Below are positions 17,281-44,187 of a stretch of 64,000 bases of DNA, in pieces; the stretch's first letter is position 1, and each line of letters opens with the position of its first letter. Location of the stretch: the sequence record OQ718158.1; one strand, written 5' to 3'. Origin of the DNA: Escherichia phage vB_Ec-M-J. Under the pieces are notes generated by a model that was not told where the DNA came from, ran no database searches, and worked only from the letters and a program-made list of their open reading frames with translations. Position numbers and translations under genes: made by a program.

Positions 17281-17370
17281 TTAAAAAAGGGATTGACTCC
17301 GGTCAGTCCCTTTGCTATTATATATTCATTGAGAGATAACTCACTGACCCATAGGGTGCGGAAGTGTATC
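17281..17370 (+). promoter_or_regulatory. composite element: hairpin/promoter + conserved box
   Basis: AAAAAAGGGATTGACtccgGTCAGTCCC; TTGACT-17-TATTAT; TGACCCATAGGGTGCGGAAGTGTATCTAT. Confidence 0.55.
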
Positions 17371-20036: not shown

Positions 20037-20126
20037 ATAAAAAAGGGATTGACTCCGGTCAGTCCCTTTGCTATTATATACGCATAGACAAAAACTAGCC
20101 CACAGGGTGCATAAGTGTATCCAAAA
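20037..20126 (+). promoter_or_regulatory. composite element: hairpin/promoter + conserved box
   Basis: AAAAAAGGGATTGACtccgGTCAGTCCC; TTGACT-17-TATTAT; TAGCCCACAGGGTGCATAAGTGTATCC. Confidence 0.55.
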
Positions 20127-21373: not shown

Positions 21374-21565
21374 TGCGTAAAAGGATTTAGTACTGAATCA
21401 TAAAAAAGTCAAGGTATTTTTAAACTTCAGCGTTAAAAAAATGCATAGGTAATCCCTTGACTTTTATGAATAAAAAGGGATTGGACTATGGCAAAATGCG
21501 TAGGGGGCTAAAGGGCGGGTAACCTTTAGCGACTTCGATAAAGGGGTATTACTAATAAAATGTTA

Positions 21566-21594
21566 TTGACTTTTTATATGAATTGTATATTATA
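21566..21594 (+). promoter_or_regulatory. promoter at head of F1 array
   Basis: TTGACT-17-ATTATA. Confidence 0.5.
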
Positions 21595-21623
21595 TGATTG
21601 ATATTATTTTTAATGGAGTCCCT

Positions 21624-21821
21624 ATGCGTATTTTAACTCAAGAAGAGCACAACGACACACTCATATCCAACATGGCATATATCCTACATATGTCACATAT
21701 CCGTGGTATTGCATATAAGCGTGAATTGGTTATGAAACTTTTCATAGGAACTAACTATCAAGAAAAGTATATCGAACTATACTTACAAGAATTACGAAGG
21801 GACATAAAAGGAAGACGATGA
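21624..21821 (+). CDS. F1 paralog (small GTNYQ-motif protein)
   Basis: start moved to ATG after RBS GGAG; C-terminal FIGTNYQEKYIELYL. Confidence 0.55.
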   Translation: MRILTQEEHNDTLISNMAYILHMSHIRGIAYKRELVMKLFIGTNYQEKYIELYLQELRRDIKGRR

Positions 21822-22018
21822 AAATGCGTATTTTAAATAAAGAAGATTATCAAGAACTGTTACGTAAAAACATGGTAAAGATTTATAACACAGACACAAA
21901 CTTAGAACGAATTGAGTTATACCTTTTGATTACATTGGGAACAAGCTATCAGGGAAGATGGGTGATTCAATATATTGATGCATTGAAAAATGAAATATTG
22001 TCCACGAGGAAACAATGA
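21818..22018 (+). CDS. F1 paralog
   Basis: ATGA overlap; LGTSYQGRWVIQYI. Confidence 0.55.
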   Translation: MKMRILNKEDYQELLRKNMVKIYNTDTNLERIELYLLITLGTSYQGRWVIQYIDALKNEILSTRKQ

Positions 22019-22224
22019 AAACTATAACACGAACCCAATCATTCGGTCTTATCTTGAAATACATGGACTTAATGTTTGATATCAGCAAAGACCTTTCTAA
22101 AACTGAAATCCAAGTTGCAAGAGCAGAGATCCGCATGTTGGCTGTACTGAACACAAACCATCAGGAAGAGTATGTTGACGATTGGATTCATTTTTTAATA
22201 GAAGATATTAAGAGTAAACTATGA
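22015..22224 (+). CDS. F1 paralog
   Basis: ATGA overlap; LNTNHQEEYVDDWI. Confidence 0.55.
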   Translation: MKTITRTQSFGLILKYMDLMFDISKDLSKTEIQVARAEIRMLAVLNTNHQEEYVDDWIHFLIEDIKSKL

Positions 22225-22436
22225 TTTTTTTAACACCAGAAGAATATAAGATACGTTTTGTTTCTGTCCAGAATAAAATCTTACTGATATATGCTTCTTT
22301 AAATGTAGACCTTAACTTATCAAGGGCAATGGAGAAGGATTTACTCATGGGTGCATTTTTGGATACAGACTTTCAGGAGTATTATGTAGGGGAATACTTA
22401 ATTGCACTCAAGAATTATATTAAGAGTAAACTATGA
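22221..22436 (+). CDS. F1 paralog
   Basis: ATGA overlap; FLDTDFQEYYVGEY. Confidence 0.55.
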   Translation: MIFLTPEEYKIRFVSVQNKILLIYASLNVDLNLSRAMEKDLLMGAFLDTDFQEYYVGEYLIALKNYIKSKL

Positions 22437-22648
22437 ATATCATTGCAAACTCAAATCAATATACCGAACGCGTCGCTGCCAGACAACTTGAAATTCTCAT
22501 AGTATATGAAGAGACTGATGATTTGAACTTAGCATTAGTATTGGAAAATGATATACTATTGGGTGCATTCCTCGGCACAGACTATCAGGAGCATTTCTTG
22601 AATGAGTATATAATTGCACTCCAGAAATACATTAAGAGCAAACTATGA
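22433..22648 (+). CDS. F1 paralog
   Basis: ATGA overlap; LGTDYQEHFLNEYI. Confidence 0.55.
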   Translation: MNIIANSNQYTERVAARQLEILIVYEETDDLNLALVLENDILLGAFLGTDYQEHFLNEYIIALQKYIKSKL

Positions 22649-22863
22649 AACATTTAAGTAATTCCGAGAAGAATAAAATTATCATTGCTGCAATAAACAA
22701 ATATTTTACACTTCCTCACACAGAAGGTTTATGTGTAAGAGAACACAGGATAAACACCACCGATATACGCATGATGGCTGTACTGGGGACTAACTTTCAG
22801 GAAGAGTATGTTGTTGCACACATAGTTGCCCTCACTGATCTAATAAGGGACAAATGTAAATGA
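22645..22863 (+). CDS. F1 paralog
   Basis: ATGA overlap; LGTNFQEEYVVAHI. Confidence 0.55.
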   Translation: MKHLSNSEKNKIIIAAINKYFTLPHTEGLCVREHRINTTDIRMMAVLGTNFQEEYVVAHIVALTDLIRDKCK

Positions 22864-23117
22864 AACACTTAACACTAGATGAATATGAAACTATAGTCCG
22901 TAAACTAACCCCTATAGCAAGGATAGTCTACGATGACCCCAGCCTTACATGGAACCAAATGCGAGCTAAAGTTAATGAGCTATGGTTGCTGTACTTTATG
23001 GGAACGCAATATCAAGATAAGTTTTGCACAGAATATGTCGAACAATTAATGAATGTTATACAGGATAAACTAGATGATTATTGGCTCACAAAACATGAAG
23101 ACTTTATCAGGAGTTGA
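22860..23117 (+). CDS. F1 paralog
   Basis: ATGA overlap; MGTQYQDKFCTEYV. Confidence 0.55.
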   Translation: MKHLTLDEYETIVRKLTPIARIVYDDPSLTWNQMRAKVNELWLLYFMGTQYQDKFCTEYVEQLMNVIQDKLDDYWLTKHEDFIRS

Positions 23118-23346
23118 GTATCAAACTGCCCTATTCTCTTTAATCCATACCCTTAGAAAAAACAATGCCTTACATGGTGCACCTGAAGTGGATGTTATCA
23201 ACGGTGAACTTTATCTTATGAAATTCATTGGAACAAACTATCAAGATCTGTTCATTCAACGATACCTATCAGCATTAAGAAACCAAATCCAATATAAAAC
23301 CATCAAGGCCAAAAAAGAATGGAATAAACAATGCGACACAGACTAA
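23095..23346 (+). CDS. F1 paralog
   Basis: in-frame ATG chosen (track 23074); FIGTNYQDLFIQRYL. Confidence 0.5.
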   Translation: MKTLSGVEYQTALFSLIHTLRKNNALHGAPEVDVINGELYLMKFIGTNYQDLFIQRYLSALRNQIQYKTIKAKKEWNKQCDTD

Positions 23347-23582
23347 ATCACAAAATGTATTGTAAACTATTACAGACACTGGCACAGAAACACTATGACA
23401 CGGTATCTGAAATATTACCCTATGATATCATGCGTTTACTTCACTGTGAGGCCGAGATGCTTGTACTGATGACAGGCACTGATAAAAAAGCAATTGCCAA
23501 ATCAATAGATATGTTCATCGAAGCACAATGTCAACACATTAGAACCGAGATATGGAGACGAGAGAATGATAACACTAAATGA
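23331..23582 (+). CDS. F1 paralog (divergent, MTGTD)
   Basis: track ORF; LMTGTDKKAIAKSI. Confidence 0.45.
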   Translation: MRHRLNHKMYCKLLQTLAQKHYDTVSEILPYDIMRLLHCEAEMLVLMTGTDKKAIAKSIDMFIEAQCQHIRTEIWRRENDNTK

Positions 23583-23781
23583 GTTTCAGTATCATTGGAG
23601 GTTACAAGCTATAAGAAGGAAAGTTGTTAGTATTTCTTTAGACAAGTCTATTGCACAAGAGGACAAATGTGTTATAATAGCTGAAATGAAGTTGGGTGTA
23701 TTCGTAGGAACAAACTATCAAAACATCTACACTGACGTATTGTTAAGTGCCTTACGTAACAAGGTGATATCAAAAGAATGA
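23566..23781 (+). CDS. F1 paralog
   Basis: track ORF; FVGTNYQNIYTDVLL. Confidence 0.55.
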   Translation: MITLNEFQYHWRLQAIRRKVVSISLDKSIAQEDKCVIIAEMKLGVFVGTNYQNIYTDVLLSALRNKVISKE

Positions 23782-23996
23782 GAAAATTAATAGGTTACGA
23801 ATATGTTAAGCTTCTGAAAACATGTGCCAACAGAAGAGTAAAGATTCAATCTGATAAGAGCATCCCTGCCAACCTAAAACATGCAATGGTAGCTGAACTC
23901 TATGCAGGGGCACTCATAGGGACAAACTATCAACAAATGTATATAGACATGTGGGTTGATGCATTAGTCAAGGAGATCCAAAGTAAATGCAAATGA
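23778..23996 (+). CDS. F1 paralog
   Basis: ATGA overlap; LIGTNYQQMYIDMWV. Confidence 0.55.
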   Translation: MRKLIGYEYVKLLKTCANRRVKIQSDKSIPANLKHAMVAELYAGALIGTNYQQMYIDMWVDALVKEIQSKCK

Positions 23997-24205
23997 TTAA
24001 TTTAAGTAAAGATGAATATTATGTTCGTCTTGCAAAAACTTATCCAGCACGTAACGCCGTTTATAATAGTAACATTATTGAACGCTCAAAGAAGTTGATT
24101 GTAGTAAATGAGATTAAGATGCTTTCAGTCTTAGGAACAAACTATCAAGAGAATGCTGTACTGTTGTTAATTGATGCCCTCAAGAGAGAGATACAAAGTA
24201 AATGA
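23987..24205 (+). CDS. F1 paralog
   Basis: track ORF; LGTNYQENAVLLLI. Confidence 0.55.
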   Translation: MQMINLSKDEYYVRLAKTYPARNAVYNSNIIERSKKLIVVNEIKMLSVLGTNYQENAVLLLIDALKREIQSK

Positions 24206-24441
24206 TTAATTTATCTTTCCATGAATATCAAAAACGTTTAAATGCATCAAGGGATATAAGGATTCAAATCTTCAATAACAAAAAATTGAAACCTGACACC
24301 AGAAGAATCAAAATAATAGAAGCAGAGTTATGCAACTTCCTGGGGACGAACCATCAGGAAGGTAAGATAAAAAACTATCTTAGAGAACTAATGATTTGTA
24401 TCGAAAATAAATGTGATGCTTTGGAGAATAAAAATGATTAA
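24202..24441 (+). CDS. F1 paralog
   Basis: ATGA overlap; LGTNHQEGKIKNYL. Confidence 0.55.
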   Translation: MINLSFHEYQKRLNASRDIRIQIFNNKKLKPDTRRIKIIEAELCNFLGTNHQEGKIKNYLRELMICIENKCDALENKND

Positions 24442-24691
24442 TTTAAGTAAAGATGAATATACCGAGCGTATGACAAAAATTACGCACAAACGTAATACAA
24501 TCTATCACAACCCAGAAATTCAACACAGTAAGAAAATGATTATGATGCGTGAGTTAAAGATGGGTGTATTCTTGGGAACAAACTATCAAGAGCCAGAAGT
24601 AAATCGATTAATTGATGAGTTACTATTGGAAATCAAAGGTAAGCTGTACTTTCATCAAATGACCCAACCACTGAGGTGTACTGATCGATGA
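24434..24691 (+). CDS. F1 paralog
   Basis: start moved to ATG after RBS GGAG (track 24413); LGTNYQEPEVNRLI. Confidence 0.55.
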   Translation: MINLSKDEYTERMTKITHKRNTIYHNPEIQHSKKMIMMRELKMGVFLGTNYQEPEVNRLIDELLLEIKGKLYFHQMTQPLRCTDR

Positions 24692-24939
24692 ATGCGATGA
24701 ATATTGTGAATAACATCAGATTAGCAGAAAGATTTGATAGAATTGGGGAAGCACTGAGAAGATACGATAAAGAATATGGTCATTTGAGCTTTTCTATAGA
24801 AAAGAGATATGAACTTGAAGCAGAGTTTAAAATGCAGAGTCTCTTAGGCACACAGTATCAAAACCAATATATTCAAACTTGGATTGATTGTTTAATCCAG
24901 ACAATTTACGTAAGAAACATTAAATGCAAAATGAAATGA
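24688..24939 (+). CDS. F1 paralog
   Basis: ATGA overlap; LGTQYQNQYIQTWI. Confidence 0.55.
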   Translation: MNAMNIVNNIRLAERFDRIGEALRRYDKEYGHLSFSIEKRYELEAEFKMQSLLGTQYQNQYIQTWIDCLIQTIYVRNIKCKMK

Positions 24940-25184
24940 TATACTTAACCTATAATGAATACGTCGAGAGATTAGTTCGTGCCAAGAGATATACCAATAA
25001 ACGTCCAATTGACCTAAACCAAACCCCAGCAGAAAGGAGTGCAGAAGTATTATTCCAATCACTACCATATCTTCTGGGAACTGATAGACAAGAGGAATAT
25101 GTTGCACGTATGATTAGATATCTTAAAATCACTATTAAGGAAAAAGTAAATGCAAATGCAAATGAAATACTTAACAGACGATGA
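24924..25184 (+). CDS. F1 paralog
   Basis: track ORF; LGTDRQEEYVARMI. Confidence 0.5.
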   Translation: MQNEMIYLTYNEYVERLVRAKRYTNKRPIDLNQTPAERSAEVLFQSLPYLLGTDRQEEYVARMIRYLKITIKEKVNANANEILNRR

Positions 25185-25407
25185 GTTAAAAGAACGATTA
25201 ATTAAATCCAGAAAACTTACAAATCAACTTCCAAACGACACAAACAAGTCACATGCCGAAAGGAGTGCAGAAGTTTTATACATTCAACTCCTGTACTTTC
25301 TTGGAACTGACAGACAAGAGTATTACATTGAAAGTATGCTTCGATATCTTAAATTCTCTATAAAGGAAAAGGTACATGCTCAAGAATTTAAAAATCCTAA
25401 CAGTTAA
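25150..25407 (+). CDS. F1 paralog
   Basis: track ORF; LGTDRQEYYIESML; close paralog of 24924 gene. Confidence 0.5.
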   Translation: MQMQMKYLTDDELKERLIKSRKLTNQLPNDTNKSHAERSAEVLYIQLLYFLGTDRQEYYIESMLRYLKFSIKEKVHAQEFKNPNS

Positions 25408-25618
25408 TGAATATCATAAGATTGTAATGAAAACTAATAGTGCAATTTCTAAAAAATCAAACCCAAAGTACATACTGGAACACACATTTGAAGAACGTCA
25501 ATTAGCTTTAGTTGAAGCAAAACTTCTTGCACTATTAGGAACAAACTATCAGGAAGAATACATCAGAAAACTAATATACCTTTTAACTAAACACATCAGG
25601 AAAAGAAAAAAAGCATGA
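25376..25618 (+). CDS. F1 paralog
   Basis: track ORF; LGTNYQEEYIRKLI. Confidence 0.5.
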   Translation: MLKNLKILTVNEYHKIVMKTNSAISKKSNPKYILEHTFEERQLALVEAKLLALLGTNYQEEYIRKLIYLLTKHIRKRKKA

Positions 25619-25845
25619 AGCACTTGACAGATGATGAACATGGGCTTATAGTAATGGATGTAATCAACATCGAATACAAAAAGTTGATACGCTACCGTTG
25701 TTATGAAGATAAGCAACTCGTTCTAGCAGAACAGAAGTTGTTTCGACTCTTAAACACAAACTTCCAAGCACAATACGAAGAATCGTATATGTACCTTTTG
25801 GCGAGGAAAGCAAAAAGAGATTATGAAAATTTTAAGCCACAGTGA
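25615..25845 (+). CDS. F1 paralog
   Basis: ATGA overlap; LNTNFQAQYEESYM. Confidence 0.5.
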   Translation: MKHLTDDEHGLIVMDVINIEYKKLIRYRCYEDKQLVLAEQKLFRLLNTNFQAQYEESYMYLLARKAKRDYENFKPQ

Positions 25846-26038
25846 ACAAACAGAATTGTTAATCTTTAATACAAGTAAATTCTTAAACATAACATTGTCT
25901 GATATAGATGATGATGAAAAAGAGTTACTTAGAGCAGATTTAAGAGTTCTTTTATATATTGGAACTAACTTCCAAGAGCAATTCGTTGAGGACTACATCG
26001 ATGAACTTAAAGAATCTGTACTGAGAACATGCAAATGA
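25823..26038 (+). CDS. F1 paralog
   Basis: track ORF; IGTNFQEQFVEDYI. Confidence 0.5.
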   Translation: MKILSHSEQTELLIFNTSKFLNITLSDIDDDEKELLRADLRVLLYIGTNFQEQFVEDYIDELKESVLRTCK

Positions 26039-26262
26039 AAATCCTTTCACCAAGTGAATACCACGAACTATTAAGTAGTTTAATTCTAAAATTGTATATA
26101 GCAAAGACCACAGATTTACCTGATGAAGAAAAAAATATTCTAATGAGTGAAATCTATGTTAATTCTACCCTAGGGACTAACTATCAAGAATGCAATATTA
26201 ATGATTACATCAATGAACTAAAAAGGTTTATCCAATGCAAATGCGAATCATTACCGAAGTAG
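26029..26262 (+). CDS. F1 paralog
   Basis: track ORF; LGTNYQECNINDYI. Confidence 0.5.
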   Translation: MQMKILSPSEYHELLSSLILKLYIAKTTDLPDEEKNILMSEIYVNSTLGTNYQECNINDYINELKRFIQCKCESLPK

Positions 26263-26477
26263 AATACCTAACAATCATAAATGGACTGTTTTCGAAGTTA
26301 TTTGCCATTAACACATCAAAACTTCCAGATACTGATAAAATTATTAAGTTAAATGAAATCTACGTTCAAGCTACTCTAGGAACAAACTATCAAGAAGCCA
26401 ATGTGTATAATTACATTAATACACTCAAAAGGGTAATACAATTAAAATGCACAGACAGCACACACACAAACCCCTAG
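26235..26477 (+). CDS. F1 paralog
   Basis: track ORF; LGTNYQEANVYNYI; close paralog of 26029 gene. Confidence 0.5.
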   Translation: MQMRIITEVEYLTIINGLFSKLFAINTSKLPDTDKIIKLNEIYVQATLGTNYQEANVYNYINTLKRVIQLKCTDSTHTNP

Positions 26478-26677
26478 GAACAGCAGAATACATTGAACTA
26501 ATGGCTGCAAACTTCTCATCCTTTAAGAAACTGATGCAAGAATCAAATAATGATTTAGAATATCATATCAAAAGTTCAGATTTAAGATTGCTACTCACTC
26601 TAGGAACAGACAGTCAGTACAAATTCGTACAGGAGCATATTAGAGCACTTTTAAATGGCATCAGGGATAAACTATGA
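26447..26677 (+). CDS. F1 paralog
   Basis: track ORF; LGTDSQYKFVQEHI. Confidence 0.5.
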   Translation: MHRQHTHKPLGTAEYIELMAANFSSFKKLMQESNNDLEYHIKSSDLRLLLTLGTDSQYKFVQEHIRALLNGIRDKL

Positions 26678-26889
26678 AGGAAATATCAAATCAAGAGTAC
26701 TTGGCACTGTTCAGAAAAAATAGTCAAGAATTTCTGAATATTGATACAAGGACTGATATAAGTGAACTTCAGAAAAATCTTTTGCGTTCAGAGATGATAG
26801 TACTGACACTCTTAGGAACACAGCATCAAGAGAGAACTGTTAATTCACACATAGGTATTCTTATACAGATAGTACAGGAAAAGATATGA
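26674..26889 (+). CDS. F1 paralog
   Basis: ATGA overlap; LGTQHQERTVNSHI. Confidence 0.5.
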   Translation: MKEISNQEYLALFRKNSQEFLNIDTRTDISELQKNLLRSEMIVLTLLGTQHQERTVNSHIGILIQIVQEKI

Positions 26890-27107
26890 GAATCATAACA
26901 CAAAAAGATATTTTTAAGTACGCAAGGGTTCATGCATCTGAAATGAATGCTATATTATCAAAAAGTTACAATGACCCTTATACACAAGATGTACTGTATC
27001 AGGAATTATGGTTGAATATACTTATAGGTACTAACTACCAAGATGAGTGCGTTCAGAGGTATTTGACAGCTTTACGTGATGCTACAGCTAATGGAGTACG
27101 TGTTTAA
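26886..27107 (+). CDS. F1 paralog
   Basis: ATGA overlap; IGTNYQDECVQRYL. Confidence 0.5.
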   Translation: MRIITQKDIFKYARVHASEMNAILSKSYNDPYTQDVLYQELWLNILIGTNYQDECVQRYLTALRDATANGVRV

Positions 27108-27108
27108 T

Positions 27109-27360
27109 ATGAAAGTACTGAGTGAATTAGAAATGCATAATAGATTATACAAGTACTACCATTTACTTAAACCTATACAGAGGATTAAGTGTCCCTTTGA
27201 AGTGAAACAGGTTTTGATTTATGAGCATAAGTTCTTTGTATCATTAGGTACTAATCATCAAGAGTACTTTTTGAAGTTGTACTTGATTACATTAATAGAT
27301 TTAATTCACTATAAAACCACACAATCTAAACAAGCTAATAAAGAGAAATATGAAAACTAA
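27109..27360 (+). CDS. F1 paralog
   Basis: ATG 1 nt after upstream stop (track 27076); LGTNHQEYFLKLYL. Confidence 0.5.
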   Translation: MKVLSELEMHNRLYKYYHLLKPIQRIKCPFEVKQVLIYEHKFFVSLGTNHQEYFLKLYLITLIDLIHYKTTQSKQANKEKYEN

Positions 27361-27688
27361 TATAAAACTCAAGGTATATAAATCATTTGCAAGTACATAC
27401 ATCAAATGCCATACATGTAACTCTGTAATGGACTACAAAGGTAAGCCATTTGCACTTACTTACGATAATACAAGAGGTTTTTATATATCTTTTGCTGATT
27501 ACAAATATAACATATACGAACACATTGACATTGAAGATTTAAGTACTTTATCTGAAGAGGAATACTTTCAAGAATCATTAGTATGGGATTTGGAGTTTCC
27601 TATGTCATTGGTACATAAGATGATAGTACTAATAAAAGAAACTAAGCCTGTACCTAATGGTTATGAAGATCACATTATTGAGTATTAA
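27350..27688 (+). CDS. F2 paralog (EExxFQ-S motif protein)
   Basis: track ORF; SEEEYFQESL; N-terminal C-x-x-C. Confidence 0.6.
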   Translation: MKTNIKLKVYKSFASTYIKCHTCNSVMDYKGKPFALTYDNTRGFYISFADYKYNIYEHIDIEDLSTLSEEEYFQESLVWDLEFPMSLVHKMIVLIKETKPVPNGYEDHIIEY

Positions 27689-27702
27689 TATATAAGGTAA
27701 CT

Positions 27703-28044
27703 ATGAAAACTAATATACAACTCAATGTATACAGTTCAGAAGAACATACATATATCAAATGCAGTCTATGTAAAGATGTAATGGACTACAAAGGTAAGCC
27801 ATTCACAATTACCTATGATTCTGATGTTAATGATTTATATATATCATTTCTTAATTACGAAAATAAAATATACAAGCACGTTGATATTAAAGATTTAAGT
27901 ACTTTATCAGCAGAGGAATACTTTCAGGAATCATTAGTATGGGATTTAGAGTTTCCTATGCCATTAGTACATAAGATGGTAGTACTAATGAAAGAAGCTA
28001 AACCAGAGTTTAACGGTTATGAAGAACACACAATTGAGTATTAA
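27703..28044 (+). CDS. F2 paralog
   Basis: track ORF; SAEEYFQESL; close paralog of 27350 gene. Confidence 0.6.
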   Translation: MKTNIQLNVYSSEEHTYIKCSLCKDVMDYKGKPFTITYDSDVNDLYISFLNYENKIYKHVDIKDLSTLSAEEYFQESLVWDLEFPMPLVHKMVVLMKEAKPEFNGYEEHTIEY

Positions 28045-28260
28045 ATGAAAAGATTATCATACAAAGATTACACCAATCTTATCAGGACTTTACAACCAGA
28101 AATTAAAAGAATTAATTCTCTTCCTATATCTCCTACAGATTGTGCAGTACTGAAAGATGAGTTAATCTTAAAACACACAGTAGGAACAAACTATCAAGCT
28201 GATAGTGTTCGATATTTAATTTGGGGGTTGATGTGTCAAATAAAGTCCAAATGCAAATGA
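28045..28260 (+). CDS. F1 paralog
   Basis: ATG adjacent to upstream stop; VGTNYQADSVRYLI. Confidence 0.55.
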   Translation: MKRLSYKDYTNLIRTLQPEIKRINSLPISPTDCAVLKDELILKHTVGTNYQADSVRYLIWGLMCQIKSKCK

Positions 28261-28266
28261 CAGTAC

Positions 28267-28295
28267 TTGACAGTACTTTTCATTACTGATATAGT
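28267..28295 (+). promoter_or_regulatory. internal array promoter
   Basis: TTGACA-17-TATAGT. Confidence 0.45.
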
Positions 28296-28326
28296 ACCTG
28301 TACGTTAATCATTAGGGTAGAAAATT

Positions 28327-28572
28327 ATGTTGAATTTTTTAAATTTCCTTATCGTCTTGTGTATTGTTCTTGGGATTGCACCATTTGTATTGTATTTCAT
28401 GGAGTCCGATGAAATGCAAAAGATGAATTGCACAAGGACAGGACAGAGTAGAGAAGAGACGATTCTTATGCCTGTTACGGTTATTGTTAATAATATGCCC
28501 ATTACAAACATGGTCCCTACCCTAACGACAACGTACCAGTACTCTTGTACAGACGGAGAGAGGTGGAGATGA
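28327..28572 (+). CDS. small membrane protein (N-terminal TM helix)
   Basis: track ORF; MLNFLNFLIVLCIVLGIAPFVLYF hydrophobic. Confidence 0.5.
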   Translation: MLNFLNFLIVLCIVLGIAPFVLYFMESDEMQKMNCTRTGQSREETILMPVTVIVNNMPITNMVPTLTTTYQYSCTDGERWR

Positions 28573-28895
28573 CACGTAAATTCAATTGTATTGTACGTAA
28601 GAATTCATGTTACATTGTAGTAGCTGATTTTAATACAGGTGCTGGGTTGAAGATATTTGAGTACAGAAAATGCAATAATTCTTTTCATTGGAAATTGGGT
28701 GCAAGAAAAGCAAAAACAATTTCAGTACCGAATTTATGTTCTATCTCTGAAGAAGAAGAGTTTCAGTACTTGTTAGTACATGATGATTCTTTAGGATTTA
28801 CATTCGAAGACATGAAGGAAGTACAAAAGCAGATGATTGCACATTGTCATCTTCCAAAGAATTTTGTTCAACGCGTATGTGAATTCTACATATAA
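28569..28895 (+). CDS. F2 paralog
   Basis: ATGA overlap after RBS GGAGGTGGAG (track 28545); SEEEEFQYLL. Confidence 0.55.
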   Translation: MTRKFNCIVRKNSCYIVVADFNTGAGLKIFEYRKCNNSFHWKLGARKAKTISVPNLCSISEEEEFQYLLVHDDSLGFTFEDMKEVQKQMIAHCHLPKNFVQRVCEFYI

Positions 28896-28904
28896 GAGAA
28901 GAAT

Positions 28905-29216
28905 ATGAAATTTAATATAGCAAAAACATCGAGTATATGTATTTTTGGTTATGCCGAAGAGTTGGGTGATATTGACATTCTTTTGTACAAAAAGGATGGT
29001 GTTATGCATTTCAAGTACCAGGATGAAGAGGCAGACAATTATCTTTTACCTAATTTAGTACAAATGCAGGAAGAGGAATTATTCCAGTACAGCTTAATAT
29101 ACGACATTGATATTTGCACGATGCCAGTATTAATTAATATACAAAAAGTTATGCTCGATATGTATGATAAGCTAATACAAGGTATGTCAGGGAGGATCAT
29201 TGAAATCGATATATAA
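28905..29216 (+). CDS. F2 paralog
   Basis: track ORF; QEEELFQYSL. Confidence 0.55.
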   Translation: MKFNIAKTSSICIFGYAEELGDIDILLYKKDGVMHFKYQDEEADNYLLPNLVQMQEEELFQYSLIYDIDICTMPVLINIQKVMLDMYDKLIQGMSGRIIEIDI

Positions 29217-29412
29217 GAATTTACCTAATGAATATATGTTGAAGTACAAAGAGTTTATTAAAGATGTATATGTAGATCCTTTCAATATCAAATTTGCAGA
29301 GTTCGAAGTATCATTTTATCTAGGGACAATAGTACAGGACCAATACGTTGATAATCTAATAAGGTGTTTGAAAAAGGAGATACAATGCAGACCCAAAGGT
29401 ATAAAAAGGTAG
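29200..29412 (+). CDS. F1-like paralog
   Basis: track ORF; FYLGTIVQDQYVDNLI. Confidence 0.45.
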   Translation: MKSIYKNLPNEYMLKYKEFIKDVYVDPFNIKFAEFEVSFYLGTIVQDQYVDNLIRCLKKEIQCRPKGIKR

Positions 29413-29657
29413 ATTCTTTATTGTACGCTTCAAAGTACAGGGATTTTTGTTTACGCGGTTCTGGAGGGGGAGAGGAAGATTTCGCTCTGAGATTATCAGA
29501 ATTCAATATGTTATTTTATCTTGGTACAAAAGAACAAGAAGATACAGTACAGAAATTTATCAATCACCTTGTACAAAAAATTAATATGCAAATTTTGATG
29601 CTTGAGTTACAGAATGAGATAAATGAATATGAATCCAGAAATAGTTCAGGATCTTAA
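29385..29657 (+). CDS. F1-like paralog
   Basis: start moved to ATG after RBS AAGGAG (track 29364); FYLGTKEQEDTVQKFI. Confidence 0.45.
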   Translation: MQTQRYKKVDSLLYASKYRDFCLRGSGGGEEDFALRLSEFNMLFYLGTKEQEDTVQKFINHLVQKINMQILMLELQNEINEYESRNSSGS

Positions 29658-30033
29658 AAAAGTAATATTTCTTTTGAATACAAGAAGTTCTTTATATAAG
29701 GAGTTCAAGGATATTAAAACATCGTGTAATATAGATTTTTTTGAAACCATACATGCGGAGTTTCGTGATTTAATTATAGATGTATTGTTTGAATTTTCCG
29801 AGAAATATCAAGGTACAGTCTTCGGTGTTAAGAATGTTCTTCGTCCAAGTACAGGTACAAGGAAGATTGAGTTATCACATTTTACAATTGGTAACAACGA
29901 TTTATTCAGTTATAACCCCAGTACATCTTTATATTTTATTCCTAAAGGAGAAAAGAATAGTCCTATTCATTACGGATGGATTATATCTTATACAATAAAT
30001 GGAACGGAGTATCCTATCAAATGGCACGATTAG
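29623..30033 (+). CDS. hypothetical protein (136 aa)
   Basis: track ORF; no family motif. Confidence 0.5.
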   Translation: MNMNPEIVQDLKKVIFLLNTRSSLYKEFKDIKTSCNIDFFETIHAEFRDLIIDVLFEFSEKYQGTVFGVKNVLRPSTGTRKIELSHFTIGNNDLFSYNPSTSLYFIPKGEKNSPIHYGWIISYTINGTEYPIKWHD

Positions 30034-30173
30034 GGTGTGAAGATTATAATATGAATATATTATTAAGAAATATTAATGCAGATTATTGTGTATGGGTTAA
30101 GAATAGAGATATGATGTATTATGATTTTTATTTAGATTGTGCCATTAAGCGTTTTTTAAGAGAAGAACATTAA
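29976..30173 (+). CDS. hypothetical small protein (start uncertain)
   Basis: track ORF overlapping upstream gene end. Confidence 0.3.
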   Translation: MDYILYNKWNGVSYQMARLGCEDYNMNILLRNINADYCVWVKNRDMMYYDFYLDCAIKRFLREEH

Positions 30174-30355
30174 TGAAAACCGTTAATACAAAAGCAATAA
30201 ATGATTTAAATGATTCTTTATTAGTAAGTATCAAGATGTATTACAATATACATTTAAAGGGTGGTATAGATAATTACAATTATTATCTTTCATTAGTTAC
30301 AATAGAACATTTAAATTATATAGATCAGTTATTACATCCAAATCCACCAAATTAA
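30173..30355 (+). CDS. hypothetical small protein (60 aa)
   Basis: track ORF; start overlaps upstream stop. Confidence 0.35.
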   Translation: MKTVNTKAINDLNDSLLVSIKMYYNIHLKGGIDNYNYYLSLVTIEHLNYIDQLLHPNPPN

Positions 30356-30366
30356 GGAATACCAAT

Positions 30367-30927
30367 ATGAATGATATTGAGTTATTGGTACATAAGATTT
30401 GCACAATATCGTTAGTGCTGAACAATGCGAATACAGTACAGAGTTCCCTTTTAAGAATTAATAAAGTTGGGAGTAGTTTATATTTGGAAGTAAAAGCTGG
30501 TTTTGCAGGACAGTACAATGATAAAATCAAAGAAGAAGTTAAGGGAAATGAAGATGCTTTCATTGAGGTTTGTGCAACAGTTGGTTCAAATCCAATTTCA
30601 GTATCACCTTTAATGCGAAATGAAAATTCAGAATTTGATTCCAGTTTTGAAGGTTATTTGTGGTACAATGCTGGTGATGATTATTTTATATATCAGAATT
30701 CCAAAACGGATTATAGTGAAGAAGGTATAAAATTCATTGATCCTTACAATGAAGCAGAAGTATTTCAGACATCCCTAATATACAATGCAAATCAAATGAA
30801 GTATCTTATGTTGTTTAGTACAATGCATTTGAATCCATTGAAAGATAATTTAAAATTTTTCATTCGTTTAGAATTAGTTGATATTGCTTATGATCTTTTA
30901 ATGCAAGGATACAGTTATGAAGTATAA
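30367..30927 (+). CDS. F2 paralog (LLMQGYSYEV C-terminus)
   Basis: track ORF; EAEVFQTSL; C-terminal 60 aa near-identical to 31004 gene. Confidence 0.6.
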   Translation: MNDIELLVHKICTISLVLNNANTVQSSLLRINKVGSSLYLEVKAGFAGQYNDKIKEEVKGNEDAFIEVCATVGSNPISVSPLMRNENSEFDSSFEGYLWYNAGDDYFIYQNSKTDYSEEGIKFIDPYNEAEVFQTSLIYNANQMKYLMLFSTMHLNPLKDNLKFFIRLELVDIAYDLLMQGYSYEV

Positions 30928-30928
30928 A

Positions 30929-30997
30929 ATGCTGTATACAAAAGATATGATTTATGTTGAATTAGAAGTCAATGACGATGTATCCATCAATAGGTAA
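30929..30997 (+). pseudogene. 22-codon remnant of an MLYT-type F2 gene
   Basis: MLYTKDMIYVELEVNDD matches N-termini of 31512 and 31844 genes, then stops. Confidence 0.5.
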
Positions 30998-31003
30998 TAA
31001 TAT

Positions 31004-31510
31004 ATGAATGAGATAGAATTATTAGCACACAAGATTAGTACAGTAATGCTTATGCTCAAGAATAATCATTCTATGCATAAGTACATTTTTATAGGTGATT
31101 TACGCATAGAAGATAGATATGATAAATTATCGTTTATGTTTAAAGATGAAAGTAATGCAAAAGTTTGTTTTGCAGCATTTGCCCAAGGCAATCCAGAACA
31201 AGCATCTCCTGTTATATACGAAAATAGTGAAGGGTATTTGTGGGTCAACACAAACGATTATTTCTTTTATGTTTTGAAACAAGATGATGAAGTAGAAGCA
31301 CGAATTGATTTAATTGATATTAGTTCAGATTGTAGTGCTGAATTATTTCAGAAATCGTTATTATACAGTCCTCGTCAAATACATTATCTAAAGTTATTCA
31401 GTTCATTGTACGCGAATCCTTTAATTAAGGGTTTTAAATTTTATATCAAAATTCCGCACCTTTCAAACGTTTATGATTTATTAATGCAAGGATATAGTTA
31501 TGAAGTATAA
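31004..31510 (+). CDS. F2 paralog (LLMQGYSYEV C-terminus)
   Basis: track ORF; SAELFQKSL. Confidence 0.6.
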   Translation: MNEIELLAHKISTVMLMLKNNHSMHKYIFIGDLRIEDRYDKLSFMFKDESNAKVCFAAFAQGNPEQASPVIYENSEGYLWVNTNDYFFYVLKQDDEVEARIDLIDISSDCSAELFQKSLLYSPRQIHYLKLFSSLYANPLIKGFKFYIKIPHLSNVYDLLMQGYSYEV

Positions 31511-31511
31511 A

Positions 31512-31811
31512 ATGCTGTATACATTAACATTAATATATGTAGAATTAGAATCCGATTCAGATGCATGGAATTTGGTTAAAGAGGTCGATACCAATCAATG
31601 GTACATGGCAAATTTAGACGCACAGGTTGTTACGGATTATTTTATAGATTTTAATACATTATCTGAAGAAGAATTTTTCCAAATGCAATTGGTGGTTGAC
31701 ATGTACGGACATGACATGGTAACATTAAGAAATATACAGAAAGCCGTTAATGAATTCCAAAGCAAGAAAGATTATGAGGTAGGAGCGTATTATGACATCG
31801 ACGTACAGTGA
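31512..31811 (+). CDS. F2 paralog (MLYT type)
   Basis: ATG 1 nt after upstream stop (track 31500 in frame); SEEEFFQMQL. Confidence 0.55.
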   Translation: MLYTLTLIYVELESDSDAWNLVKEVDTNQWYMANLDAQVVTDYFIDFNTLSEEEFFQMQLVVDMYGHDMVTLRNIQKAVNEFQSKKDYEVGAYYDIDVQ

Positions 31812-31843
31812 AAGCAATGAGTACAATAGTTATGAAGTATAAA

Positions 31844-32149
31844 ATGCTTTATACATTATCAGGGATATATGTAGAATTAGAACCCGATTATCCAGATGGA
31901 TGGAATTTTATCAAACGCTCCGAAAGAAATACATGGTACATGGCACATTTGGATAATGACGTAATATTAGACAATTTTGTGGATTTTAATACATTATCAG
32001 AAGAAGAATTCTTCCAAATGCAATGTGTGCTTGACACAAAAGGATTTGATGTGCTATTATTAAAGAATATACAGAAAGCTGTTAACGAATTAATATCCAA
32101 TGACGAGTTAGGCAAAGTGAGGCTGTTCCATGATCTCGAAGTACAATGA
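31844..32149 (+). CDS. F2 paralog (MLYT type)
   Basis: start at MLYT ATG (track 31808 is GTG); preceded by fossil ...agttatgaagtataaa; SEEEFFQMQC. Confidence 0.5.
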   Translation: MLYTLSGIYVELEPDYPDGWNFIKRSERNTWYMAHLDNDVILDNFVDFNTLSEEEFFQMQCVLDTKGFDVLLLKNIQKAVNELISNDELGKVRLFHDLEVQ

Positions 32150-32705
32150 AAGCAATGAGTACAATGAAATTCAGTACACCTACGCTAATGCAATCCTTAT
32201 GGGACAAAAGTTAGCTTGTATTGTTGCAGCCTTATATAATGCACAGAAAGATTACAAGCGTCACATCCACAAATGTATTGGTATTATTCCATCGAAGTAC
32301 AATACATATATTGCGTGCACGAGACATTTTGATAAACGATTCAATACACCTGATACCCCAAATGCCCATAGTGTTATTGGTCTTTTGGATTTTGCCCCTG
32401 GTGCTGTTATTGGAAAGAATGATTTAGAGTACGCATGGTATAATAAAAATGCCCCGTTAGTAATGGTAAAATATGATACAGAAACGAACAAAGCAATAGA
32501 GTACAATACATATAAATCAGAGGAAGAATTTTTCCAAGGTTCATTGCTTGTGCCAGTGCGTTTGTTATTTTATAATGTCATAATGAGTACAGTACACGAT
32601 AGTCCATTACACAAGAATCACAAAATTAATTTCAATTTTTGTGCTTATGCGATTGATGGTGTTTATGAGTGCTTAATGGAGGTATTGAGTTATGAAGCTG
32701 AATAA
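32130..32705 (+). CDS. F2 paralog
   Basis: track ORF (start uncertain); SEEEFFQGSL. Confidence 0.5.
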   Translation: MISKYNESNEYNEIQYTYANAILMGQKLACIVAALYNAQKDYKRHIHKCIGIIPSKYNTYIACTRHFDKRFNTPDTPNAHSVIGLLDFAPGAVIGKNDLEYAWYNKNAPLVMVKYDTETNKAIEYNTYKSEEEFFQGSLLVPVRLLFYNVIMSTVHDSPLHKNHKINFNFCAYAIDGVYECLMEVLSYEAE

Positions 32706-33033
32706 TACATTTGATATTAAGAAGTTAAGAGAATGGTTTAATAGTATTGAAATTGACGCCATTCCTTATCATACATATGAACAAAGTGATTTACAAAGTA
32801 TTGATATCAGTGAGTTGTACAAATATTATCAGAGTGCATTAGAGATGCATAAGTTATTTTTGAGTACAAATTTCATTCTAAATTACAATTTTGAGGAATT
32901 TAATAATTATAATTTAGTACAGAAATATGTAGTAGCAAAGTACATGTACAATCAAGGAATTAAAGATTGCCTCGAATTCAATACCGTTCTTATTTTAGTT
33001 GAGGTAATTTTATGCACCGCATGTCTGATTTAG
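32692..33033 (+). CDS. hypothetical protein (113 aa)
   Basis: track ORF; no clear family motif. Confidence 0.4.
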   Translation: MKLNNTFDIKKLREWFNSIEIDAIPYHTYEQSDLQSIDISELYKYYQSALEMHKLFLSTNFILNYNFEEFNNYNLVQKYVVAKYMYNQGIKDCLEFNTVLILVEVILCTACLI

Positions 33034-33509: not shown

Positions 33510-33527
33510 GATATGGGCTTTTTTTGT

Positions 33528-33556
33528 TTGACACGAGTACAAATGCATGGTACAAT
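33528..33556 (+). promoter_or_regulatory. internal array promoter
   Basis: TTGACA-17-TACAAT, preceded by T-run. Confidence 0.5.
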
Positions 33557-33581
33557 GTGTAATCATTTTAAGGAGATACCT

Positions 33582-34762: not shown

Positions 34763-34763
34763 T

Positions 34764-34958: not shown

Positions 34959-34965
34959 GGCACAC

Positions 34966-35825: not shown

Positions 35826-35835
35826 GGAAAGTACA

Positions 35836-38437: not shown

Positions 38438-38438
38438 T

Positions 38439-39346: not shown

Positions 39347-39348
39347 TA

Positions 39349-41455: not shown

Positions 41456-41985
41456 GAAAAATTAACATTAATGATTATGATGCATTACAAGATTTATCAA
41501 AAAAGATTCGCACTATCGTACCAGTACTGAAAAAATGCAGTACTGGATTAATTGATCCTAGTACAGTTATTAGTGAGAAGTACGATTTCCATAAACTGTT
41601 ACAAGGGAATGGTGCATTCCAGAAGTGTGAGATACGTGAGAAACACGTCATTGATACATCATTGCTTTCAATTGGTTCAGCCGTTCATAAGAATGTTGTA
41701 TACCTTGAATCCAGATCTGAAACTATTCGACAGATGACTTTTAAGAAAAAGTGTACTGAAATTGACGTGTACACTATGATATGGGGTTATCCAGAGTTAT
41801 ATCGTACTATTAATATTCCTAAGTACAATTACAATTCATTTGAAGAACAGTGCTTTCAACTATCTTGTACTGATCCTGACTATGCTATTATTCAGTTCTA
41901 TATGGAATTACAGATGGCATTTAACAGTAATTTAAATATCAATTTATTAAAGGTTGATTTCGATGAAGTATTCAAAAACATTTAA
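41452..41985 (+). CDS. F2 paralog
   Basis: ATGA overlap; FEEQCFQLSC. Confidence 0.5.
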   Translation: MRKININDYDALQDLSKKIRTIVPVLKKCSTGLIDPSTVISEKYDFHKLLQGNGAFQKCEIREKHVIDTSLLSIGSAVHKNVVYLESRSETIRQMTFKKKCTEIDVYTMIWGYPELYRTINIPKYNYNSFEEQCFQLSCTDPDYAIIQFYMELQMAFNSNLNINLLKVDFDEVFKNI

Positions 41986-42181
41986 TCGAATTGAATACAT
42001 GAGAACTGTGAGTGCAGTGTGGGACATATGGTTCACTACTAAACCAAAAATGGATTACCATGACTTTAAGCTATTGTTCTTCGTTGGCTCTAACAAACAG
42101 GATGTTGCAATGAAGGGTTATATTCAGCACTTACAGGAACTAATCCAGAAGAGAATATATGAAAATAATAGACCAAGATGA
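41954..42181 (+). CDS. F1 paralog (embedded in F2 array)
   Basis: track ORF; FVGSNKQDVAMKGYI. Confidence 0.45.
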   Translation: MISMKYSKTFNRIEYMRTVSAVWDIWFTTKPKMDYHDFKLLFFVGSNKQDVAMKGYIQHLQELIQKRIYENNRPR

Positions 42182-42350
42182 TATTGCTAAACTATTCAAT
42201 ATATATTCTTCTAAAATGATGCAAACCGACTCATATAGTACTGAATTCAAAGAATTAAAAGTACTGATGTATTTGGGCACACAGTATCAGGAACAAGTTG
42301 TTAAAGAATATATTGATTCTTTACAGAAGGATATCCGTTATGTACAATGA
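42159..42350 (+). CDS. F1 paralog (embedded in F2 array)
   Basis: track ORF; LGTQYQEQVVKEYI. Confidence 0.5.
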   Translation: MKIIDQDDIAKLFNIYSSKMMQTDSYSTEFKELKVLMYLGTQYQEQVVKEYIDSLQKDIRYVQ

Positions 42351-43487: not shown

Positions 43488-43492
43488 ATGCC

Positions 43493-44180: not shown

Positions 44181-44187
44181 GGTTAGT

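Follow-up and report, generated by a model that had tools for sequence, protein, structure and literature searches.

The 64,000-nt window analysed here, from Escherichia phage vB_Ec-M-J (sequence record OQ718158.1), contains a run of 26 consecutive small genes on the + strand (21594-27360) that belong to a single protein family, here called F1, as a sequence-only reading of this DNA had proposed. The encoded proteins are ~65-90 aa long. Adjacent ORFs, as called, overlap at all 25 internal junctions of the array, and since each gene starts inside the preceding one there is no intergenic DNA within it. The genes had been described as mostly coupled by ATGA overlaps; overlap itself proved universal, with the 4-nt ATGA form present at 12 of the 25 junctions when the longest ORFs are used (up to 15 if internal ATG starts that fit the family are taken instead) and overlaps of 8-44 nt at the others.

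The array opens with member 1 (21624..21821), a 65-aa protein when read from the ATG at 21624 within an ORF that opens at 21594; a GGAG lies 9 nt upstream of this ATG, and the 65-aa form is annotated in fEgEco12 and PBECO4. Member 1 is followed, all on the + strand, by members 2 (21818..22018), 3 (22015..22224), 4 (22221..22436; 47% identical to member 5), 5 (22433..22648), 6 (22645..22863), 7 (22860..23117), 8 (23074..23346; alternative start 23095), 9 (23331..23582), 10 (23566..23781), 11 (23778..23996), 12 (23987..24205; alternative start 23993, giving ATGA) and 13 (24202..24441). The second half comprises members 14 (24434..24691; 53% identical to member 12, in an ORF that opens with GTG at 24413), 15 (24688..24939), 16 (24924..25184), 17 (25150..25407), 18 (25376..25618), 19 (25615..25845), 20 (25823..26038), 21 (26029..26262), 22 (26235..26477), 23 (26447..26677), 24 (26674..26889), 25 (26886..27107) and 26 (27109..27360; ORF opening with GTG at 27076). 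The internal ATG codons at 21624, 24434, 27109 and, in a dispersed member, 29385 are probably the starts used, in preference to those of the longest ORFs.

Immediately downstream lie two genes of a second family, F2 (27350-27688 and 27703-28044, encoding 112 and 113 aa; + strand), and then a further F1 gene, member 27 (28045..28260, +). Together, 27 F1 genes and the two F2 genes make up a single polycistronic unit of ~6.7 kb, with a sigma-70-type promoter found by promoter scan ahead of it (TTGACT-16 nt-TATTAT, 21566..21593, +) and member 27 as its final gene; a strong sigma-70-type promoter from the same scan (TTGACA-17-TATAGT, 28267..28295, +) marks the downstream limit of the unit. Beyond it, on the + strand, are members 28 (29200..29412; TTG start), 29 (29385..29657; ORF opening with GTG at 29364), 30 (41954..42181; a weak member of uncertain start) and 31 (42159..42350). 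The window therefore encodes ~31 F1 members, 26 in the run and five dispersed (28045, 29200, 29385, 41954 and 42159).

In order to define the family we trained a hidden Markov model (HMM) on 29 members, leaving out 41954 and 42159. Searched against the 461 ORFs of the window, this model recovered both untrained members (E=2.9e-7 and E=4e-14, respectively) and identified no further member, the remaining ORFs all having E values of at least 0.37. A sixth dispersed gene put forward by the sequence-only reading, 38252-38437, is not supported (E=5.5). Leave-one-out HMMs recovered 28 of the 29 trained members at E<=5e-8 (for example, E=1e-12 for member 1, E=1.3e-10 for member 28, E=1.2e-8 for member 29 and E=5e-8 for member 19), whereas shuffled versions gave E>=0.5. 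The exception was member 9, in which G-T-D is followed by an insertion and the Gln is missing (leave-one-out E=0.11). It is nonetheless predicted to have the same three-helix layout (pLDDT 85), its position and size fit the array, and we consider it a divergent F1 member.

Database profiles led to the same family. Nine of ten F1 members tested matched phrog_4148 of PHROGs (best E=1.8e-23); members 6, 7, 11, 13, 17, 21, 27 and 29 were part of this test, member 31 matched with E=1.4e-17, and member 9 gave no match to the profile. The alignments cover profile positions 1-72 of 74 and are thus full-length; matches to phrog_28039 were weaker, and a Pfam search returned no match. The PHROGs entry for phrog_4148, the same family as F1, describes no function, structure or tandem layout. 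The near-invariant columns of the F1 HMM (G49, T50, Q53 and L64) bear out the C-terminal motif that had been described, but the stretch ahead of it is not simply a variable N-terminus, as it has a consensus of its own (M-K-x-L-[ST]-x-x-E-Y) and is included in the alignments, which span residues 1-72. Nor is a distant relationship between F1 and F2 supported, as had been suggested from a shared Y/F-Q-E core: profile-profile comparison gave a probability of 0.1% for F1 versus F2, and likewise for F1 versus a third family, F3, indicating that the Y/F-Q-E common to F1 and F2 is a resemblance and not evidence of homology. F2 and F3, by comparison, have an FQ motif region in common (probability 90.7%, E=1.2e-6).

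The AlphaFold model of member 21 is a small helical bundle of four helices (pLDDT 95.7), for which structure comparison against the PDB found no specific match. A turn with the sequence L-G-T-[ND]-[YF]-Q-[ED] joins the last two helices and is conserved along with the hydrophobic core; most other positions are highly variable, with entropies above 3 bits in surface columns. Most members have a negative GRAVY, which points to soluble proteins, and pI values range from 4.4 to 10.0. To the eye, the pattern h-h-L-G-T-x-x-Q-x-x-V-x-x-x-I-x-x-L resembles the helix-turn-helix of sigma region 4 and LuxR, raising the idea of a family of DNA- or RNA-binding regulators (nucleoid proteins or small transcription factors) in which the L-G-T turn serves as a helix-turn-helix. 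The apparently early timing of the genes (see below) would suit such regulators, as would the precedent of Bacillus phage G, in which a lineage-specific expansion of ~35 zinc-ribbon proteins has been proposed to serve in this way (Iyer et al. 2021, PMC7824862). Like F1, that expansion has multiplied a single very small domain, of unassigned role, into ~30 or more paralogues in a jumbo phage; it differs in being built on a zinc ribbon instead of a helical bundle, F1 having no metal-binding Cys/His pattern, and in phage group and host. We regard a regulatory role as distinctly unlikely.

The motif is also repeated at the nucleotide level. With <=3 mismatches allowed, the + strand holds 16 occurrences of the conserved 17-nt word GGAACAAACTATCAAGA, all of them inside F1 genes, against an expectation of 0.42; the motif Asn is encoded by AAC in 17 of 18 cases even though AAT accounts for 70% of the other Asn codons in these genes (P=1.7e-8), and the motif Tyr by TAT in 15 of 16. 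The word might therefore act as a site for RNA processing, recombination or binding, which would partly explain why the motif is retained. However, K64-1 copies retain the protein motif but lack the bias in codon use, the synonymous site of the motif Asn column varies among orthologues (pS 0.26), Rfam gives no matching family, and constraint on the protein accounts for most of the motif conservation; a role for the DNA or RNA word itself thus appears highly improbable.

An exhaustive search of 1.84 billion representative proteins yielded 96 clusters of F1 homologues. Those whose source could be traced, being named or on long contigs, all come from jumbo phages of Asteriusvirus (E. coli/Salmonella) or Alcyoneusvirus (Klebsiella), and the other remote homologues sampled lie on metagenome contigs. 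The copies in K64-1 match phrog_4148 as well, and no 1:1 orthology between F1 genes and the Klebsiella phage copies is detectable. F1 is thus a lineage-specific multigene family of small soluble helical bundles in Rak2-like jumbo phages. Copy number was compared across related phages: five genomes carry gap-free arrays of 26-29 contiguous, intact copies, close relatives differing in number, and the ~140 array genes of these genomes include no pseudogenes or gaps (one short member, of 52 aa, occurs in two genomes).

Pooled dN/dS for F1 is 0.35-0.41. Reading frames that stay open in five genomes, together with a dN/dS below 1, support the view that the genes are translated and under selection. 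Compared with fEgEco12, the ratio is 0.39 for F1, 0.23-0.27 for flanking non-family genes, 0.23 for F2 and 0.38 for F3. Core columns (L4, L29, L46, G48, T49, Q52, Y59, L63 and I67) have ratios of <=0.13, and exposed columns reach ~0.9-2.7, where values above 1 come from non-independent pairs among five genomes and in part from gene overlaps, in which dS is depressed; with the overall ratio below 1, these data do not demonstrate diversifying selection. The excess of the F1 ratio over that of neighbouring genes, together with a variable copy number, a narrow distribution and annotation without function, might indicate that the array is mostly dispensable filler, a selfish duplication grown by unequal crossing-over, tolerated in a jumbo capsid filled by headful and of weak or redundant function. 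The lack of pseudogenes and gaps, the strong constraint on core positions and retention of the family in two phage genera all argue against this view, and we find it very unlikely.

Pairwise protein identity among F1 paralogues averages 24% and does not exceed 53%. Adjacent genes are slightly more similar (29.6%) than distant ones (~24%), and this comparison supports an origin of the F1 genes as paralogues of one family through tandem duplication. The duplications do not appear recent, however, as the sequence-only reading had held on the strength of two pairs that it took for near-identical. These pairs share only 53% (members 16 and 17; 24924/25150) and 51% (members 21 and 22; 26029/26235) of protein sequence and 70-71% of DNA sequence. 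Moreover, 24924 and 25150 each have their own orthologue in PBECO4 and CRJP21 (91-98%), and 26029 and 26235 have separate orthologues in PBECO4 (78% and 100%), indicating that the duplications predate the divergence of those phages. The dispersed member 28 has an 87% orthologue in ph0011 and no clear orthologue in fEgEco12. Gene by gene, the array is 48% to 100% identical to PBECO4 in nucleotide sequence, and breakpoints fall within genes.

Could the paralogues be subunits of one hetero-oligomeric assembly, made in near-equal amounts through coupling and acting as a cytoplasmic scaffold or compartment component during replication? Zero spacing and overlapping starts favour coupled, co-ordinated synthesis, and conserved polar residues (E8/Y9, T49, N50, Q52 and E53) sit in the turn and the N-terminal segment, which are paired with each other in the predicted model, and may form a common contact face. 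A fixed stoichiometric complex is nevertheless hard to reconcile with a copy number of 26-29 and with the swapping of single cassettes between relatives for paralogues only 36-60% identical, and F1 members are also dispersed in the genome and vary widely in charge. An assembly of this kind is unlikely.

The array begins ~40 nt past the end of a ~21.5-kb direct terminal repeat, whose boundary we infer, by comparison with fEgEco12, to lie at about 21,526; its candidate promoter at 21566 thus sits ~40 nt into the unique region. That promoter matches 10 of 12 consensus positions, in a scan whose overall site count is no higher than in shuffled sequence. In PBECO4 the upstream sequence differs, yet TTGACA-17-TATGAT stands at the equivalent place. 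The terminal repeat holds 20 near-perfect sigma-70 promoters. Equivalent short-gene regions of the related phages CBB and PA5oct are predicted or measured as early (PMC5259590, PMC7318152), and by analogy the F1 array is probably expressed early. In the virion proteome of phAPEC6, neither proteins of 7.5-11 kDa nor products of gp348-548 appear, in keeping with a non-structural role. Small early host-takeover proteins are known from T-even phages (AsiA and Dmd of T4) and from T5 (the products of its pre-early terminal-repeat genes); they are made from host sigma-70 promoters at the onset of infection and bind stoichiometrically, their genes are single-copy and their targets known. F1 resembles them in protein size, in its place in or adjoining a terminal repeat, in its predicted host sigma-70 promoters and in the proposed mode of binding; it differs in having ~31 paralogues and in that neither its sequence nor its fold resembles a solved structure.

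Diverged paralogues arrayed in tandem near genome ends, in copy numbers that vary between strains, are also found in large eukaryotic DNA viruses, as in the MGF110/360/505 families of ASFV and the Bcl-2-like and host-range families of poxviruses, where small helical proteins have diverged on a conserved scaffold to bind different components of host defence. The likeness to F1 lies in the arrays of diverged helical paralogues near genome ends and their variable number. No homology links these families to F1, which is prokaryotic; its proteins are far smaller (~70 aa), its genes form a single operon with overlapping stops and starts, and a role against host defence is only proposed.

A specific form of such binding would be the neutralisation of toxins by antitoxin- or immunity-like proteins, with a different toxin for each paralogue, be it from a host toxin-antitoxin system, an abortive infection system or a competing element. 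Tandem, one-strand arrays of small, diverged immunity genes of the same family, encoding specific protein binders, are an established pattern in bacterial polymorphic toxin systems (PMC3482391), and F1 members are likewise small, soluble and helical with variable surfaces; in addition, the equivalent early region of K64-1 includes, according to its annotation, a putative YeeU-like antitoxin gene and a putative YafQ-like toxin gene. F1, however, resembles no known immunity or antitoxin family in sequence or fold, and no toxin genes lie within or adjoining the array, so that we consider this sub-case rather unlikely.

The reading that we prefer, tentatively and at somewhat less than an even chance, is that the array encodes a battery of varied binders, translated together and early, that act in host takeover or counter-defence. 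Host RNA polymerase would transcribe the operon early in infection, and translational coupling would deliver all of the paralogues together. On the shared scaffold, each would present a variable surface of its own and act as a stoichiometric binder, inhibiting or redirecting a different macromolecule of the host or of a rival element, and this diversity may be kept up as copies are duplicated or lost and as co-infecting phages recombine.

The small-protein family F1 occupies 26 consecutive ORFs of 65-94 aa at 21,594-27,360 which, like every gene of the window, lie on the + strand. Two genes of another family (112 and 113 aa; 27,350-28,044, +) follow directly after this run, and a further F1 gene (28,045-28,260, +) closes the unit. 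We built a hidden Markov model (HMM) on 29 candidate members and ran it against the 461 ORFs of the window, where it picked up two genes outside the training set, those starting at 42159 (E=4e-14) and 41954 (E=2.9e-7); none of the remaining ORFs scored below E=0.37. Leave-one-out profiles recovered 28 of the 29 members at E<=5e-8, as against E>=0.5 for shuffled F1 sequences. The sole failure was 23331-23582, in which G-T-D is followed by an insertion and the conserved Gln is missing; the gene is in register with the array, and the same helix layout is predicted for it (pLDDT 85, from a prediction that used the family alignment). The ORF at 38252-38437 was ruled out as a member (E=5.5). With 23331 counted as divergent, 38252 dropped and the two untrained genes gained, F1 therefore comprises 31 members: 25 firm ones and a divergent one make up the contiguous run, and five lie outside it (28045, 29200, 29385, 41954 and 42159). 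The tandem array of about 26 genes described in the sequence-only reading thus stands, as do five of its six dispersed members.

Nine of the ten members tested matched phrog_4148 of PHROGs v4 (E 3e-4 to 1.8e-23), which carries the label 'unknown function'; 23331 did not match. Eight of the nine alignments span approximately positions 1-72 of 74, and that of 29364 is confined to profile positions 37-68. The family had initially been described as a shared core behind a variable N-terminus. The core motif held up, with G, T, Q and one Leu as near-invariant columns, but homology is full-length and includes an N-terminal M-K-x-L-[ST]-x-x-E-Y.

An AlphaFold model of member 26029-26262, for which the alignment comprised the 31 paralogues, reached a pLDDT of 95.7 and a pTM of 0.80, with helices at residues 8-17, 19-27, 32-46 and 53-73 and a one-residue bridge linking the N-terminal segment to the G-T turn. 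In this model G-T-[ND]-[YF]-Q-[ED] would be a structural turn, with Gly ending helix 3 and N/D-x-x-E capping helix 4. A Foldseek search of the PDB gave a best E of only 0.83, a viral structure library returned only Asteriusvirus members of F1 itself, and characterised anti-defence proteins with solved structures (anti-CRISPR, anti-restriction and others) showed no likeness to F1 in sequence or fold. The pI of F1 proteins ranges from 4.4 to 10.0 (median 8.8) and GRAVY is negative in most members, so the proteins are soluble and not uniformly charged. One alternative is that they are nucleic-acid-binding regulators, which we regard as improbable: against a helix-turn-helix or sigma region 4-like identity, ten members had no Pfam match at E<0.01, helix-turn-helix families included, a PDB sequence-profile search yielded nothing beyond E>=1.5, and no structural likeness to helix-turn-helix domains was found. 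Profile and structure searches thus tied F1 to phrog_4148 and to nothing in Pfam or the PDB.

All 25 junctions within the run overlap. Twelve are 4-nt ATGA overlaps (up to 15 with family-consistent internal ATG starts) and the non-ATGA junctions overlap by 8-44 nt. The purine-rich stretch before the next start consists of the conserved C-terminal I-K-S-K-L codons, as exemplified by ATATTAAGAGTAAACTATGA at three successive junctions. From this layout we infer coupled translation of the whole F1 set. That the paralogues form a hetero-oligomeric assembly is another explanation, to our minds a rather unlikely one. A promoter-like site, TTGACT-16-TATTAT (21,566-21,593, +), precedes the array ~40 nt past the terminal repeat boundary, on its unique side, and with this promoter the first F1 start is placed at the ATG at 21,624, behind GGAG. 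The upstream sequence differs in the related phage PBECO4, yet TTGACA-17-TATGAT is found at the same place. The next strong promoter (28,267-28,295, +) lies directly after the last gene of the F1 unit; the first gene behind it, 28327-28572, encodes 81 aa with a hydrophobic N-terminal stretch, MLNFLNFLIVLCIVLGIAPFVLYF, and is probably a small membrane protein gene. Within F1 member 19, at its 5' end, we also observed a promoter-like TTGACA-17-TATAGT (11/12 positions; 25624-25652), which is made by the Leu-Thr codons of the N-terminal motif and could be an internal promoter or chance.

In the record of fEgEco12, a related phage with the same array, the first ~21 kb are repeated at the right end, and its direct terminal repeats of 20,993 bp have been confirmed by PhageTerm and restriction digests (PMC13070987). 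The repeat boundary maps onto the window at ~21,526, and by this comparison window 1-21526 would correspond to the direct terminal repeat. The repeat of vB_Ec-M-J itself has been given as 21,525 bp (PMC13070987), which would fit the ~21,526 boundary if the window starts at the genome end. This segment probably acts as an early or pre-early block, comparable to the terminal repeat of T5. Twenty near-perfect sigma-70 promoters (at least 11/12 consensus positions) lie at 0.4-20.2 kb, 19 of them in intergenic spacers and most 29-57 nt upstream of a gene. Equivalent short-gene regions of CBB and PA5oct were predicted or measured to be early and host RNA polymerase-dependent (PMC5259590, PMC7318152).

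Several other features were seen around the repeat. The 190-nt spacer before the array promoter (21374-21565) folds at -45.6 kcal/mol, more stably than its shuffled versions (z=-2.97), and spans the inferred inner edge of the repeat. A 28-nt hairpin, AAAGGGATTGACTCCGGTCAGTCCCTTT, occurs in three exact copies (14011-14038, 17286-17313 and 20042-20069); its stem holds a TTGACT -35 hexamer, TATTAT follows, and the element has the look of a promoter joined to a terminator-like stem-loop. No known RNA families were found in 17-31 kb of the window. The 213-aa product of 16633-17274 matches a protein-kinase model weakly and short of the family cut-off (Pfam Pkinase, E=0.004). Its counterparts are annotated Ser/Thr kinase (fEgEco12 g044) and protein kinase (gp473 of Klebsiella phage K64-1), and in both genera the gene lies upstream of F1. 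A few kb upstream of its right-hand terminal repeat, fEgEco12 carries another tandem array of ~20 genes of 59-77 aa and one 219-aa gene (PP777464.1 348835-353438; 14102-18705 of our stretch L009), with an approximate consensus of M-x-x-E-[YF]-Y towards the N-terminus and Y-x-x-[VIL]-L-x-L-I towards the C-terminus. It does not match the F1 HMM (best E 0.24); the repeat is therefore flanked on either side by arrays of small paralogues.

The phage behind the window is a jumbo coliphage of the Asteriusvirus type. Thirty-five phage records align to window 21,594-28,260 at 80-96% identity, with Escherichia phage fEgEco12 closest (95.8%) and PBECO4, phAPEC6, 121Q-like phages and four Salmonella phages also among them; the features under those matches are all annotated 'hypothetical protein'. 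The PBECO4 RefSeq record (NC_027364; L004 3004-9361) has 19 annotated features vs 29 contiguous intact F1 genes by HMM, leaving about one-third of the array without annotation in the genus reference genome. The F1 locus thus exposes annotation gaps.

A word-indexed search of 5.8 billion proteins gave 120 matches, and all those traceable to a source were Asteriusvirus-like. When 1.84 billion representatives were searched exhaustively with the profile, only 96 clusters reached E<=1e-3, and nearly all of these are 52-121 aa long. Named remote matches were the Klebsiella Alcyoneusvirus phages K64-1 and phiKp_21 and Escherichia phage A4, the rest being metagenome contigs, and tblastn added RaK2 and Muenster as carriers. 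The 13-15 F1 copies of K64-1 are spread over 40 kb as small clusters with genes of the F2 and F3 type interleaved; copies from E. coli and Klebsiella phages are 30-45% identical, a paralogue-like level at which one-to-one orthology is not resolvable. Some F1 proteins are extended: two of K64-1 (121 and 115 aa; L002 20564-20929 and 23909-24256) bear an extra ~55-aa C-terminal tail, and P0207, a 269-aa fusion, is encoded just after F2 genes in some Asteriusvirus-like 350-kb contigs (L006-L008 10001-10810). Since neither Pfam nor PHROGs has a match for the added parts, which are not F2 or F3 either, domain fusions were dropped as a route to F1 function.

F2 and F3, two other paralogue families, together range over window 27350-46976 on the + strand. 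F2 has 11 members of 103-164 aa (starts at 27350, 27703, 28545, 28905, 37064, 37555, 37911, 40255, 43493, 43842 and 45735) and F3 has 15 of 146-210 aa (30367, 31004, 32130, 34852, 38439, 38906, 39349, 39815, 40569, 41009, 42298, 44131, 44781, 45260 and 46482). Both contain an invariant Phe-Gln in the motif S-E-E-E-[YL]-F-Q-x-S-[LT]-[VI], around which they are related (hhalign probability 90.7%), and their database matches are all PHROGs without assigned function. By eye this motif resembles TEV/3C protease sites, probably by coincidence. The distant kinship first suggested between F1 and F2 was rejected, as was kinship with F3 (hhalign probability 0.1% for each). K64-1 carries F2 and F3 as well, and given the interleaving there, F1, F2 and F3 therefore travel together in both genera.

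Pairwise protein identity within F1 averages 24% and reaches at most 53%. The adjacent pairs initially read as near-identical products of recent tandem duplication, 24924/25150 and 26029/26235, share only 53% and 51% of protein residues and 70-71% of their DNA. Moreover, 24924 and 25150 each have their own orthologue in PBECO4 and in the related phage CRJP21 (91-98% identity), and 26029 and 26235 have separate orthologues in PBECO4 (78% and 100%). The duplications are therefore older than the split of those phages, and recent duplication is ruled out. Neighbouring F1 genes are 29.6% identical vs ~24% for distant ones, a slight likeness that is a faint trace of tandem origin. When compared with relatives, the arrays were intact and gap-free in all five genomes, with 26-29 contiguous copies (window 26, fEgEco12 28, ph0011 27, PBECO4 29, CRJP21 28). 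Nucleotide identity to PBECO4 varies from 48% to 100% per F1 gene, with breakpoints within genes; cassettes and half-cassettes have evidently been swapped between phages. The locus shows the traits of a viral tandem multigene family, namely paralogues, copy-number variation, mosaic cassettes and a site beside the terminal repeat.

Pooled dN/dS for F1 orthologue pairs is 0.37-0.41. Measured against fEgEco12, the ratio is 0.39 for F1 and 0.38 for F3, vs 0.23 for F2 and 0.23 and 0.27 for non-family genes upstream and downstream. Core positions L4, L29, L46, G48, T49, Q52, Y59, L63 and I67 have ratios <=0.13, and several exposed positions are near or above 1, in pairs that are non-independent and with C-terminal dS depressed by the gene overlaps. 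On these sequence comparisons the F1 genes encode proteins under selection, and we find it quite improbable that the array is tolerated filler.

Synonymous sites are conserved inside G-T-N-Y-Q in the F1 genes of window 21747-28199. The motif Asn is AAC in 17 of 18 genes, whereas Asn elsewhere in the same genes is 70% AAT (P=1.7e-8), and the motif Tyr is TAT in 15 of 16. The 17-nt word GGAACAAACTATCAAGA has 16 + strand copies at <=3 mismatches, all in F1, vs 0.42 expected. This bias is absent from the K64-1 copies. Gene conversion, an RNA or DNA signal and a codon effect are candidate causes; one conceivable source is short-tract recombination at the motif from one paralogue to another, which would fit the intragenic breakpoints. 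An explanation of the array by a nucleotide-level element strikes us as highly improbable.

With regard to a place in the virion, the mass-spectrometry table of phAPEC6 virions lists no 7.5-11 kDa protein and none numbered gp348-548. The F1 array lies at 317.7-324.2 kb of the 352.6-kb phAPEC6 genome and would fall within that numbering. The table argues against F1 as a virion component, although small proteins can escape mass spectrometry.

The F1 family is real, under selection and lineage-restricted. Its proteins are tiny and helical, with a conserved hydrophobic core and turn motif and variation at most other positions. The genes form a single compact operon where the unique region begins, and copy number and cassettes turn over among close relatives. 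The most parsimonious mechanism, which we favour tentatively, may be a battery of early, co-expressed, stoichiometric binders against different host or rival targets, serving takeover or counter-defence. As a sub-case of this binder model, an immunity- or antitoxin-like array is unlikely. A further version of the binder model, less probable than the general one, is a germline-encoded 'library' on a miniature helical scaffold. Here the ~31 paralogues would each neutralise their own defence or takeover target, and new specificities would come from recombination at the motif as half-cassettes are shuffled among co-infecting phages; F1 would then be a previously unrecognised anti-defence fold class and a natural minimal binder scaffold.

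Papers on fEgEco12, phAPEC6, CBB, RaK2, Sharanji and PA5oct, and overviews of jumbo phages, make general remarks on paralogues and leave F1 undescribed; in RaK2, ~10% of genes are paralogues (RaK2 literature). The literature searched held nothing experimental on a role of F1 in host range or immune evasion. Lineage-specific tandem expansion in large viruses is already known as a general phenomenon. F1 has its PHROGs entry, though none of the papers searched describes it; what is unusual is its 26-29 contiguous overlapping genes, its scaffold without an informative structural neighbour and its site immediately beyond the terminal repeat.

Asteriusvirus and Alcyoneusvirus jumbo phages are under development for therapy against E. 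coli and Klebsiella, and >70-80% of their genes are without assignment. F1 alone accounts for ~31 genes, ~5% of the gene count, and with F2 and F3 fills tens of kb of the early region. Function aside, the locus offers a clean natural system in which to follow tandem family growth, divergence and cassette exchange in phages. Should F1 proteins prove to be diversified binders aimed at host factors or defences, they would go some way towards explaining host range, and would constitute a new class of anti-defence or takeover proteins built on a very small, evolvable helical scaffold.
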